Of a DNA stretch of 56,042 nucleotides, positions 3,001 to 6,000 are shown one piece after another. Location: contig VFJJ01000063.1 of assembly GCA_009886115.1 (NCBI GenBank), forward strand, positions 1-56,042. Reading direction: 5' to 3'. The first letter of the stretch is position 1; the number at the start of each line of letters is the position of its first letter. This stretch comes from Actinomycetota bacterium (GTDB lineage: Bacteria > Actinomycetota > Acidimicrobiia > IMCC26256 > VFJJ01). A program made the position numbers.

Positions 3001-6000
3001 GACCGCGCGTCCTTCCGCTCTCGGGCCGACCCACCAGCGCGACGTGGTCACCACGACCACCGACCTGGTCCAGGTCGTCCGCGACGGTGTCGCCTCACTC
3101 GAAACCGAGGCTCGACGGGTCGGACCCGTGACCGAGGGCGAATCGTCGGACGAACCGGAGTTCATGCTCTTGCTGAAGGGTGTCAGCACGCTCCTCGAAC
3201 GGGTCCCGGCGTTCGCGCTCGACGAGCGCGAACGAGCGCTGATCGGAGCCCGGATCGACGATCTGGCGCGCTGGCATGCCGGTCGGGGTCGGTCGCGCAC
3301 CCCGGACAGCTCGATCGCCGCTGCCGGGCTCGAGCCCGTCACACCCGCCGCTCCTGCGCCACCCTCGCCGAGCACTCCGGTGCTGGAACTACCCGAGGCA
3401 GGTCCGGTGCTGGAACAGCAGCCGGCAGATCCGGTGTCGGAGGAGCAGCCGGCAGGTCGGGTGCTGGCGCAGCCCGCGCCAGGTCCGGTGCTGGAGGAGC
3501 AGCCGGCACAGGCACTGCCGCAGCTGCCTGCCCCGGTCGTTCCCGAGGATCCGGTCCTCGAGCACGGGGCGGGCGAACCCCGTGCGGTCTCCGATCCTCG
3601 GGGGCCTTCGCCGCTGCGGCGCCGGATCAGCCAGTTGATGACCGTCACCGGCGTGGTGATCGTGCTGTTCGTCGGCTACCTGCTTGTCGGCAGCGACGTC
3701 AGCCATCAGCGCGACCAGCGCGTCCTCGAGGACCGTCTCCAGCACCATCTCGTGCGGGCCAGCCAACTCGCGGCGCCCGTCGAGATCTTCTTCGAGACCG
3801 ATCCGGCCACGGGCGATCCTCAGATGCCCGAGCTGATCGGCCAACCCCTCGATGTCGCCGTTGCGGCACTCGAAGGACTCGAGTTGACCGTCCAGGTCCG
3901 GGCCACCAAGGACCCCGACGTTCCCGCGGGACGGGTCGTGGGGACCGACATCGAGACCGGCGCAGCGGTGCGCTCGGGAGCCGATGTCGTCGTCGAGGTG
4001 TCGAGTGGTCCGCCGGTCGGCTCGCCGATCGCCATGCTCGAGATCGACGCGGTCGGGGTGGAGGAGGTCGTCGTCGAGGCCACCGGCGCCAGTGAGCTCA
4101 AGGATGGGCCGGGCCACTACCGCGCCAGCTCGATGCCGGGCCACGTCGGCAACGTCGTGATCGCCGGTCGCCGGAGCACCTACGGTGGCCCGTTCTCGCG
4201 AATCGGTGAGCTCGATGCGGGTGACGAGATTCGTGTGACCACGGTGGACGGGGCGTTCACGTACGTCGTCGAGGCGACGGAGGTCGTCGAACGGGGCGAT
4301 CCCGACGTGATCGGCCCGACCGATGACGATCGCCTCACGCTCGTGACCGGCCACCCCCGGTTGCGAGCGGCCGAGCGTCTCGTCGTGACCGCGATCCTCG
4401 ACGGCGAGGCCCTGCCCGAGCCGTTGGGGATCGACCCGCCGACCGACGTCGAGCAGACCGAGACCGGGCTCTTCAGCGACGTCAGGGCGTGGGGCCCGAC
4501 GCTGTTCTGGGGGCAGCTCGTCCTCGGGGCCTACCTGGGGTTGCGGCTCATGGCACGACGGTGGCGTCGGTGGTCGACCTGGTTGGTGAGCACCCCGGTG
4601 CTGCTCGTCCTGGTGCTCGTCTGGTTCGAGAGCATCCACCGCCTGTTCCCGTCGACCCTGTGAGAGACACCGCTGTGCCGCCCATCAGCCCGGTCGCCAC
4701 GGACGGCGAAGCCCAGCCACGAGAGTGCCGATGCCCTCGAATCGACTGACGCCGTTCATCGCAGCAGCTGTGCTCGTTGCCATCGTGATGGTGTCACCAG
4801 GAGCCGACGCGTCCGACGCATCCGATACCGCCGGCCCAGCGGGAGGGTCATCGACCGTCGAGTTGCCAGTGGACCTCTCGCCGGAGGTCGGCGCCGCGGC
4901 GATCGGCGCCATGAGCGTTGGCGCGGCCGCGGTCGTTCCCCAATCGCCGGTGGTGGGGATTGCGGCGACGCCGTCGGGCCTGGGGTATTGGTTGGTGGGG
5001 GCTGATGGTGGGATCTTCGCGTTCGGCGACGCCGCGTTCCTCGGTTCGATGGGCGGAGCCGCACTCCAGCGCGAGATCGTGGGGGTGGCTGCGACGCCTT
5101 CGGGTCGGGGGTATTGGTTGGTGGGGGCTGATGGTGGGATCTTCGCCTTCGGCGACGCCCACTTCGCCGGATCGACGGGGAGCTTCCGGCTCAACCGTCG
5201 GATCGTGGCGATTGCTGCGACGCCTTCGGGTCGGGGGTATTGGTTGGTGGCGGCTGATGGTGGGATCTTCGCGTTCGGTGACGCCCACTTCGCCGGATCG
5301 ACCGGAGGCATCGCCCTGAACCGGGCGATCGTGGGGATGGCTGCGACGCCTTCGGGTCGGGGGTATTGGTTGGTGGCGGCTGATGGTGGGATCTTCGCGT
5401 TCGGTGACGCGACGTTCCACGGATCGCCGGCCACCACCCCGGCCAGCCAGAACATCGTTGCGATGATCGCCGATCTCGACGGGGCCGGGTATCTCCTCGT
5501 CGGGGGAGCCGGAGCCATCTTCCCGTTCGGAGCGGCCCGGGCCCGAGGCGGTGCGGTGACGCTCGACCTCGTCGGGGCGGTGGTCGGGATCGTCCGCTCG
5601 GGGTCGGGCAGCGCCTATTGGCTCGGTGCGGCTGACGGTGGCGTCTTCTCGTACGGAAGTGCTCCCTTTCTGGGCTCGCTCTACACCAAGTGACCCTCAG
5701 ACACGCGCGTCCGAAGGTAGTCACTGTACGTCGTAACGTCGCCACAGAACAATAGAAATATCAGCCGCAACGTATGGCGAAGTTCACCCCAAGTTGTCGT
5801 AGGTGTCATGGCCGTCCCTTAGAACTGGTGGTGCGGAGATTCCGCAACATCCACCGATTTGGGGAGGGTACTTTGAAGCGAAGCAGGAAAGTCCTGATGC
5901 TCATGAGCCTGGGAGCGATTGCAGCTACTGCGATCATTCCCAGTGCTGGGGCGCTCCCGCCGCCCGGCAGTCCCGGATTGAACCCCGGCCTGAACGACGT

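Follow-up and report, generated by a model that had tools for sequence, protein, structure and literature searches.

Our analysis of the 56,042-nt stretch of DNA examined here (the window) shows that a 42-residue repeat recurring across this actinobacterial genome is confidently predicted to fold, in sets of six, as a six-bladed beta-propeller, and suggests that the resulting module is probably a non-catalytic domain for binding to, or anchoring on, the cell envelope, in which each near-identical blade probably offers the same site for a repeating wall polymer. The 322-residue product (P0001) of the ORF at 4725-5693(+) consists of six such units after a signal-like N-terminus and a linker, with no other domain (Table 1). 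The alternative start codon (ATG 4731 rather than GTG 4725) has GAGAG 5 nt upstream. Residues 1-30 run from a basic residue through a 13-residue hydrophobic core (Kyte-Doolittle 3.19) to an A-x-A-like motif, a putative export signal judged by hydropathy and not by a signal-peptide predictor. The units begin at residues 76, 118, 160, 202, 244 and 286, a spacing of exactly 42, and the last is 37 residues long. All blades have in common the motif G-Y-W-[LMVI]-V-x-x-D-G-G-[VI]-F-x-F-G-D-A-x-F-x-G-S; its strongest positions are Gly, Tyr, Trp and Ala, and each unit has Asp at positions 19 and 27. Units 2 and 3 are 85% identical as protein and 87% as DNA, unit 5 is the most divergent (28-46% identity to the other units), and the repetition is visible in the DNA as a 126-nt period at 4953-5492 (3.8-4.3 copies; TRF scores 349-709).

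Table 1. Features of the P0001 gene and the second repeat-bearing ORF of the window.
Feature	Position	Strand	Details and basis
Stand-alone secreted propeller protein gene (P0001)	4725..5693	+	Start GTG 4725 or ATG 4731; stop 5691-5693
Signal-peptide-like N-terminus, residues 1-30	4725..4814	+	Hydropathy; pLDDT <50
Low-complexity Ala/Ser/Gly/Pro linker, residues 31-75, disordered	4815..4949	+	Sequence; pLDDT 44-54
Repeat unit 1 (blade 1), residues 76-117	4950..5075	+	Unit profile, AlphaFold2 model
Repeat unit 2 (blade 2), residues 118-159	5076..5201	+	Unit profile, AlphaFold2 model
Repeat unit 3 (blade 3), residues 160-201	5202..5327	+	Unit comparison
Repeat unit 4 (blade 4), residues 202-243	5328..5453	+	Unit comparison
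Repeat unit 5 (blade 5), residues 244-285	5454..5579	+	Unit comparison
Repeat unit 6 (blade 6), residues 286-322, shortened last blade	5580..5690	+	Unit comparison
Second carrier in the window: ORF with M23 peptidase (residues 238-280), then four detected units (residues 324-494)	20124..21857	-	Unit profile, Pfam

The genes around P0001 encode a PASTA pseudo-sortase, a PBP-like protein and sugar transferases. A search for a conserved neighbourhood in 79 related loci with 3-kb flanks returned just one weak match (sortase), so that gene context gives no support to a reading of function. One metatranscriptome (RNA library) contributed a single contig of 236 nt at depth 2, covering 5290-5525 with two differences, which is too slight for a claim of transcription; no meaning attaches to the stretches that it leaves uncovered.

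The AlphaFold2 model of P0001 (mean pLDDT 84.2, pTM 0.76) has 231 of 322 residues at 90 or higher, with values above 90 over residues 71-320, and places 18 strands in six equal groups. The five structures that match it best comprise four NHL domains, among them that of Brat (Z 19.5), and the sensor of Mycobacterium tuberculosis PknD (Z 19.2). Like the RSL and AAL lectins lower in the list, these are six-bladed propellers with a ligand-binding role. Like the NHL propellers of Brat, TRIM2, TRIM71 and Mei-P26 and like the PknD sensor, the model has six blades, each formed by a repeat of about 42 residues, within the range of about 40-44 residues per blade that is typical of the NHL class, and the structures align with an rmsd of 3.2-3.6 A across 217-233 residues (Z 19.0-19.5). 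Sequence identity in these alignments is however only 9-13%, the motif is another one, and most carriers of the repeat are secreted enzymes rather than kinases or RNA-binding proteins. The initial annotation had called the propeller NHL-type, which the predicted fold bears out and the sequence does not: the NHL model (Pfam PF01436) matches none of the 46 carrier ORFs described below, the 36 true NHL repeats of the genome lying in five other ORFs, and NHL is neither one of the five Pfam families listed for P0001 at E<=10 nor, of the 53 families that 51 relatives match at E<=1, one of the 25 that occur most often. A loose resemblance to RCC1 and RCC1_2 was also apparent in the motif (D-G-x-V-aromatic-x-aromatic-G ... 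G-x-x-G); the best PDB profile match was the RCC1-like domain of HERC2 (E 0.08, non-significant), and RCC1_2 was matched by 3 of the 51 relatives at E<=1 and by 16% of the members of one ESM Atlas cluster. In RCC1 propellers the blades number seven and are 51-68 residues long, against six units of 42 residues in P0001. The RCC1-like repeat was rejected, as RCC1_2 (PF13540) gave 0 matches at E<=0.01 among 67 candidates from the genome; no separate search with PF00415 was made. Foldseek searches of the PDB and BFVD returned only generic WD40/RCC1 propellers (TM 0.3-0.5) and were left out of the classification.

The structural matches fall off gradually, Z dropping from 19.5 for the first to 14.9 for the fiftieth, and six-bladed enzymes are among them (Z 15-17.5; PAL and Drp35 both at 17.5), so the fold alone cannot tell a binder from an enzyme. 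Together with the automatic SMP-30-like name of one ESM Atlas cluster, these matches might suggest that the propeller is itself catalytic, for instance a metal-dependent lactonase or lyase like SMP30, Drp35 or PAL, but we consider this very improbable. Known propeller enzymes place different residues in different blades, whereas here one motif recurs in all six and Gly, Tyr, Trp, Phe and Ala fill most of its invariant positions; the module is also nearly always appended to another catalytic domain, and phages have viable versions with two and three units. When each unit was matched to those of other proteins, 80 of 144 best matches came from the corresponding blade (24 expected by chance), which indicates from sequence that the six-blade domain is inherited as a whole while its blades are near-identical, a combination typical of propellers that bind and not of those that act as enzymes.

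The repeat had been described as absent from Pfam and NCBIfam, and our searches agree, since the best scores of P0001 were below the cut-offs of both libraries (Pfam RNR_Alpha, 22.6 bits against 26.4; NCBIfam L24e, 17 bits against 73). PHROGs does not recognise it either, its matches ending before the repeat, a sequence search of the PDB with P0001 gave 0 matches at E<=10, and a search of the literature found nothing on this 42-residue repeat. Weak matches below the Pfam cut-offs in the 51 relatives at E<=1 (L24e in 26, DUF5818 in 23, SH3_YKFC_2nd in 14, RNR_Alpha in 7) were read as noise from repeated beta-hairpins. Several relatives are called 'ribosomal protein L24E' by one source, a misnaming that had been pointed out before. 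The family comprises 21,715 representatives at 50% identity, and all 8000 of 8000 scored candidate relatives matched at E<=1e-3, against an earlier count of 7,991. Its cultured carriers include Acidithrix ferrooxidans PY-F3, Acidimicrobium ferrooxidans DSM 10331 and Catellatospora sp. KI3. The best 120 relatives include fusions to YkuD, CHAP, M23, SpoIID, NlpC/P60, VanY, 3D, GH25 and amidases, and several relatives of 340-410 aa stand alone, without another Pfam domain.

A profile built from the six units of P0001 and iterated once detected 221 units in 46 stop-to-stop ORFs of the genome at E<=1e-3 (211 units in 46 ORFs at the first pass), of which the two weakest, with one unit each (E 4.7e-9 and 1.5e-4), are doubtful. 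This is close to the 206 units in 43 proteins counted originally, and the example loci given then were recovered. The most frequent spacing is 42 aa (62 of 175 spacings). As read from the profile table, the array is C-terminal in about 27 ORFs, N-terminal in 9 and the whole protein in 4, the rest being internal or cut. Eight of the 46 ORFs are cut by a contig end and were left out of the test of the N-terminus; by this crude hydropathy test, 27 of the 38 ORFs with an intact 5' end begin with a basic and then hydrophobic stretch, which is absent in 11, suggesting that most carriers are exported. Pfam matches at E<=1e-5 never overlap an array in the 44 other carrier ORFs, and 16 of these have no family at all. 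All twelve partners named in the initial annotation were found again (M15_4, SpoIID, Amidase_2, S8, CAP, M10, GH43, DMFA2_C, GSDH, FG-GAP, BNR/fn3 and CHRD), to which we add YkuD (twice), DUF1501, Abhydrolase_10, G8, PD40, Trypsin, Pkinase and PKD. The claim that the repeat is attached mainly to cell-wall hydrolases and other secreted enzymes overstates the hydrolases in this genome: a partner can be recognised in 29 ORFs, and in just 6 of these it is a peptidoglycan enzyme (SpoIID, YkuD twice, M15_4, Amidase_2 and M23), the remainder being proteases, CAP, GH43, dehydrogenases, hydrolases and a kinase. Since only these six act on peptidoglycan, the ligand need not be peptidoglycan, and a general surface anchor fits the spread of partners better than a targeting domain specific to hydrolases. 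Other wall modules are scarce by comparison (SLH 0 matches, LysM 2 ORFs, PG_binding_1 6 ORFs, against 46 with the repeat).

In its distribution the repeat resembles SLH, CWB2, LysM, SH3b, PG_binding_1 and choline-binding repeats, which likewise stand N- or C-terminally on autolysins and unrelated exoenzymes and C-terminally on phage endolysins. SLH or CWB2 in Firmicutes is one module common to dozens of secreted proteins per genome, as the repeat is here; unlike these modules, it is predicted to form a closed six-bladed ring, a wholly different fold. The favoured ligand would be the glycan backbone of peptidoglycan or a widely shared wall glycopolymer. Fused to an enzyme, the module would keep the exported enzyme on the wall, and P0001, as the free module, may coat or occupy the same wall sites.

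The exoenzyme partners could also be taken to mean that the propeller, in the manner of a carbohydrate-binding module (CBM), has as its ligands the substrates of its partner enzymes or polymers from the environment (plant or fungal polysaccharides, proteins) and not the cell's own wall. Many of them have no link to peptidoglycan (GH43 twice, S8 three times, trypsin, M10, Abhydrolase_10, GSDH twice and DMFA2_C twice), and lectin propellers are structurally close (see below). We think this unlikely, because the same module sits on enzymes whose substrates are unrelated, which points to a shared anchor site, because the kinase fusion described below places the module at the cell's own surface, and because endolysins, which act on the host wall from inside, carry it where wall-binding domains sit.

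This last arrangement was found in viral contigs of IMG/VR, to which the viral evidence is confined, tblastn of INPHARED phage genomes with whole P0001 having given no match. In 81 loci, 40 unit-bearing ORFs have 2 units, 33 have 3, 5 have 6, 2 have 12 and 2 have 1, and ORFs with 4 or 5 units never occur. The units of the short forms are invariably C-terminal, and among the 65 short forms (1-3 units) that were scanned an N-terminal Amidase_2 domain precedes them in 49 and GH25 in 1; in L003 and L004, which have six, they come after the same endolysin PHROG catalytic domain, and the one locus checked for context lies among tail genes. The units thus stand C-terminal to the catalytic domain, the position of a wall-binding domain in an endolysin, a role that the module would play in the phage amidase fusions. 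Because phage endolysins carry the repeat in this classical position, the binding-module reading proposed initially, though still inferred, is now stronger. A precedent for a phage-borne propeller that reads a wall glycopolymer is gp45, the receptor-binding protein of staphylococcal phage phi11, a five-bladed propeller that recognises wall teichoic acid and has a putative cavity for GlcNAc (PMC6115969). It differs from the repeat propeller in having five blades, in belonging to the tail baseplate rather than to an endolysin, and in its unrelated sequence.

One paralogue in the genome (C92:11636-13996) combines a Ser/Thr kinase domain (residues 69-268), one membrane helix (approximately 438-458) and six units (526-769), so that its sequence predicts the PknD topology of kinase, membrane helix and propeller; it is alone in this order, P0001 having no kinase. 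In this protein the module would serve as an extracytoplasmic sensor. A receptor kinase among the paralogues, stand-alone forms such as P0001 and the relatives of 340-410 aa, and NHL domains and the PknD sensor as top structural matches could all point to a platform for proteins or small ligands, similar to eukaryotic NHL or WD40 domains and to the PknD sensor, that builds surface complexes or senses a soluble signal and has no affinity for wall polymers. Such a role has a low probability in our view: the kinase fusion is rare (in the best 120 relatives, just the query and a single other protein, 93% identical), and a platform leaves unexplained both the two or three C-terminal units on phage amidases (49 of 65) and the recurrent peptidoglycan-enzyme partners across thousands of relatives.

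The closest lectins in the structural list are the fucose-binding propellers RSL of Ralstonia solanacearum (Z 18.5; 4csd, an engineered monomeric RSL) and AAL of Aleuria aurantia (Z 16.4), which like P0001 have six near-identical blades and, at 5-9% identity, no sequence similarity to it; RSL comes close behind the NHL domains and PknD in the list. In its natural form RSL has chains of two blades, three of which join to make six. The phage forms with 2 and 3 units resemble such chains, and judging from unit counts, on which phage oligomerisation is inferred, the viral series of 2, 3, 6 and 12 units fits the assembly of a ring from short chains as in RSL. A bolder and more tentative proposal is that Acidimicrobiia and related Actinomycetota hold their surface proteins non-covalently mainly by means of this repeat, as a lectin-like ring whose six equivalent sites take up a conserved wall glycan, in which case the two- and three-blade phage versions must trimerise and dimerise, respectively, into the same six-bladed ring; we regard it as possible, though short of an even chance.

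New in this analysis are the viral forms with 2, 3, 6 and 12 units, the repeat as the tail of Amidase_2 endolysins, and the kinase-helix-propeller paralogue. The series of 2, 3 and 6 units on one endolysin family offers a natural test of how propellers evolve from fragments, which has so far been studied with engineered fragments (PMC6805158). If the phage fragments do assemble into rings, they would be a natural, widespread fragment-assembled propeller and, among endolysin wall-binding domains, the first with a beta-propeller fold. More than 21,000 clusters at 50% identity have no Pfam, NCBIfam or PHROGs model, and a curated model would correct thousands of annotations. Acidimicrobiia abound in soil, sediment and water; a module that anchors proteins to the wall, if it is one, would mark their secreted and surface enzymes, and it would help to find the phages of Acidimicrobiia and to construct lysins or labelling probes directed at uncultured actinobacteria. 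Should it prove to be their main anchor, the repeat would define the surface proteome of a large, mostly uncultured lineage.

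The 322-residue repeat protein is encoded by a 322-codon open frame in DNA of 65-70% G+C, with candidate starts at GTG 4725 or ATG 4731, the latter preceded five bases 5' by GAGAG, and no promoter-like or terminator-like sites were found at 4400-6000. Its layout, and that of the other features discussed here, is listed in the table. Tandem Repeats Finder reports a 126-nt DNA period at 4953-5492 (3.8-4.3 copies, 80-85% matches), and units 1-4 share 73-85% identity as protein and 75-87% as DNA, with units 5 and 6 far more divergent (28-56% identity). A profile built from the six units and iterated once, when run against every stop-to-stop frame of 60 codons or more in the source genome (224 contigs, 5.45 Mb), detected 221 units in 46 frames at E<=1e-3, the two weakest frames being doubtful with one unit each; the initial annotation, whose observation is real, counted 43 proteins and 206 units. 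The modal unit spacing is 42 residues (62 of 175 spacings), and the strongest positions are Gly12, Tyr13, Trp14, Gly20, Gly26, Ala28 and Gly32, together with Asp19, Asp27 and Ser33.

Coordinates of the repeat gene, its protein segments, its neighbours and two further repeat carriers
Feature	Location	Strand	Details
Protein with PASTA and a sortase fold, without the catalytic His and Cys	2996-4663	+	555 aa
Repeat gene	4725-5693	+	322 codons
Basic-then-hydrophobic N-terminus of its product	residues 1-30		closes in an A-x-A-like motif
Linker	residues 31-75		rich in Ala/Ser/Gly/Pro
Six tandem units	starts at residues 76, 118, 160, 202, 244, 286		spacing exactly 42
PBP_like_2 (PstS-like) periplasmic binding protein	5774-7153	+	hydrophobic N-terminus; directly downstream of the repeat gene
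Second repeat carrier in the window	20124-21857	-	M23 peptidase, then four detected units
Ser/Thr kinase paralogue (locus L108)	C92:11636-13996		kinase residues 69-268; six units residues 526-769

That the repeat is unannotated, as had been claimed, was borne out for the window protein by Pfam (top score 22.6 bits, under cut-off), NCBIfam (at best ribosomal protein L24e, whose 17 bits fall short of the cut-off of 73), PHROGs (22 bits, no accepted stretch) and PDB sequences (no match at E<=10). The commonest weak matches among 51 relatives were L24e (26), DUF5818 (23) and an SH3-like model (14), and the frequency of the first explains the 'ribosomal protein L24E' names from one source. Searches of open-access papers and preprints by motif, or by combinations of propeller, endolysin, wall-binding, Actinobacteria and Acidimicrobiia, found no literature on the 42-residue repeat.

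The AlphaFold2 model of the window protein (51-sequence alignment; mean pLDDT 84.2, pTM 0.76) places 18 strands in six equal groups, with residues 71-320 mostly above 90 pLDDT and the N-terminal 44 residues below 50. Foldseek returned only generic seven-bladed WD40 proteins (TM ~0.5). Exhaustive structural alignment of the model against 48,161 chains ranked the NHL domain of Brat highest (Z 19.5; rmsd 3.3 A over 225 residues), followed by the extracellular domain of M. tuberculosis PknD (Z 19.2), the NHL domains of TRIM2, Mei-P26 and TRIM71 (Z 19.0-19.2) and an engineered monomeric Ralstonia lectin, RSL (Z 18.5), with Teneurins, NHLRC2, PAL, Drp35, the AAL lectin (Z 16.4) and YWTD domains (Z ~15) lower. 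Since Z falls smoothly to 14.9 at rank 50, the description 'NHL-type six-bladed propeller' is fair for the predicted shape, but shape picks out no one family. By sequence the NHL label does not hold, as the Pfam NHL model matches none of the 46 repeat frames; its 36 matches in the source genome are confined to five other frames. One of the five encodes a giant true-NHL protein 19 kb from the repeat gene, in a 2242-codon frame at about 24321-29009(+) with at least 20 NHL matches above cut-off. A loose likeness to RCC1 stays below significance: HERC2 matches at E 0.08, RCC1_2 matches weakly in 3 of the 51 relatives, one ESM Atlas cluster is so named automatically, and RCC1_2 has no match in the source genome.

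The propeller family that this repeat defines is very large and uncurated. All 8000 scored candidates of a 90%-identity collection were significant, and a profile made from 23 of the source genome's propeller domains matched 21,715 representatives of 50%-identity clusters at E<=1e-3 (11,001 at E<=1e-30). A pattern search of the GTDB species genomes gave 629 matches, of which 622 were confirmed; nearly all of the top 80 come from uncultured Acidimicrobiales or Acidimicrobiaceae, Acidithrix ferrooxidans PY-F3 being the one isolate. Other cultured carriers on record are Acidimicrobium ferrooxidans DSM 10331 and Catellatospora sp. KI3, and there are carrier MAGs with the labels Frankiaceae, Streptosporangiaceae, Solirubrobacteraceae and Miltoncostaeaceae. 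When the phylum was sampled evenly, a single query matched 19 of 401 genomes at E<=1e-5, and in one other family 13 of the 26 genomes sampled had one or two matches each; both tallies rest partly on unpublished genomes (G148, G391, G001 and G226), the latter taking in G001, G226 and G391. In a published-status genome of that family (G291), one frame (L205:2283-3467) joins a LAS-type metallopeptidase motif to five divergent units behind it. Exactly six units occur in 82 of the 89 unit-bearing frames of 79 related loci.

When the 144 units of 24 six-unit arrays in the source genome were compared, the best match outside a unit's own protein lay at the corresponding blade position for 80 of them (24 expected by chance), and only 15 had their nearest counterpart within the same protein. 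The six-blade domain is therefore an old one that moves as a single block. The window protein departs from this pattern: the mean identity among its own units, 0.59, is at the top of the range (0.34-0.59), which together with the repeat at the DNA level points to blades 1-4 having been homogenised or re-amplified recently.

The repeat also occurs in viruses. Cultured-phage genomes gave no match, and IMG/VR yielded 81 loci (2 found with the window protein, 79 with an alignment), in which frames carry two units (40), three (33), six (5), twelve (2) or one (2), and none carries four or five. Units always lie at the C-terminal end of the short forms. A Pfam scan covered 72 viral frames, ten duplicate or cut ones being left out (L002, L013, L015, L016, L028, L035, L040, L052, L058 and L072); among its 65 frames of one to three units, an N-terminal Amidase_2 was found in 49 at E<=1e-4 (two under the curated cut-off), GH25 in one and no family in 15. 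PHROG endolysin families span the first ~180 residues and end before the repeat, which sits where Gram-positive endolysins have their wall-binding domain. The six-unit proteins L003 and L004 have the same endolysin domain as the short forms. Two proteins of ~1025-1067 residues (L005:2990-6064 and L006:2930-6130) have twelve units each, which presumably make two propellers, and match neither a Pfam nor a PHROG family. In the one viral locus inspected, a two-unit protein (L001:5755-6444) whose match to an endolysin PHROG is only weak (E 1.7e-5) is set among two major tail proteins, a tail fibre, Neck1 and a tape measure, and may for that reason be a tail-associated lysin or receptor-binding accessory rather than a lysis-cassette endolysin.

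The unit counts of 2, 3, 6 and 12 suggest that the working unit is a ring of six, which the short viral forms would close as trimers or dimers. In its natural form the RSL lectin is trimeric, each chain supplying two blades. Engineered WD40 fragments of two to five blades do form homo-oligomers of this kind (PMC6805158). In the M23 carrier of the window, two further degenerate units may complete the ring.

The neighbours of the repeat gene offer no guide to function. In the sortase-fold protein and 8 of 11 aligned homologues, Arg/Lys and Gly/Ala/Ser replace the His and Cys of 'AGHR' and 'T-C-H-P', which are the catalytic residues of sortases and which 3 of the 11 keep, so that this looks like a conserved pseudo-sortase subfamily; PASTA occurs, among these homologues, only in this protein and its identical database record. 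Downstream, the PBP-like gene is followed by a Bac_transf polyprenyl-phosphate sugar transferase and a GT4 glycosyltransferase, an order that resembles the beginning of a surface-polysaccharide cluster. The arrangement is not conserved in the 79 related loci, and therefore no functional reading was taken from it. Four DNA runs of one freshwater-sediment study contained 80-94% of sampled words, and a single 236-nt metatranscriptome contig (depth 2) matching 5290-5525 with two differences gives a weak hint of transcription.

All fusion partners previously named were recovered by Pfam on the 44 repeat frames outside the window, along with YkuD (twice), DUF1501, Abhydrolase_10, G8, PD40, trypsin, PKD and a protein kinase; at E<=1e-5 Pfam assigns no family to 16 of the 44, and none has a Pfam match on the array. 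A crude hydropathy test found a basic-then-hydrophobic N-terminus in 27 of 38 frames with an intact end (eight more are cut by a contig end), some of the remaining 11 looking twin-arginine-like or lying barely below threshold. The best 120 relatives, counted by hand, carry YkuD (11), CAP (11), CHAP (9), Beta-lactamase2 (6) and, in one to four cases each, SpoIID, NlpC/P60, M23, VanY, 3D, polysaccharide deacetylase, M10, S8 and GH43; GH25, Amidase_3, SLT and phage lysozyme occur in a second list of relatives. For the source genome, the proposed attachment mainly to cell-wall hydrolases is an overstatement, since peptidoglycan is the target of only 6 of the 29 partners that could be recognised; the module is therefore better termed a general surface anchor than a hydrolase-specific device. 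The kinase paralogue, with a single hydrophobic helix at about 438-458 preceded by Lys-Arg-Arg, shares the PknD topology of kinase, membrane helix and six-unit propeller; such fusions are rare, the best 120 of the second list including only the query itself and one 93%-identical protein.

The module is far commoner in the source genome than SLH (no matches), LysM (two frames) or PG_binding_1 (six frames). Its most likely role, which we regard as reasonably probable, is non-catalytic binding to the cell envelope, and the initial annotation's reading as an envelope- or ligand-binding module is supported. The window protein is the free form of the module, with coating, competing or adhering as possible roles. 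A conserved wall glycan is the favoured ligand, since the same conserved motif is found in several actinomycetotal classes and in the phages that infect them.
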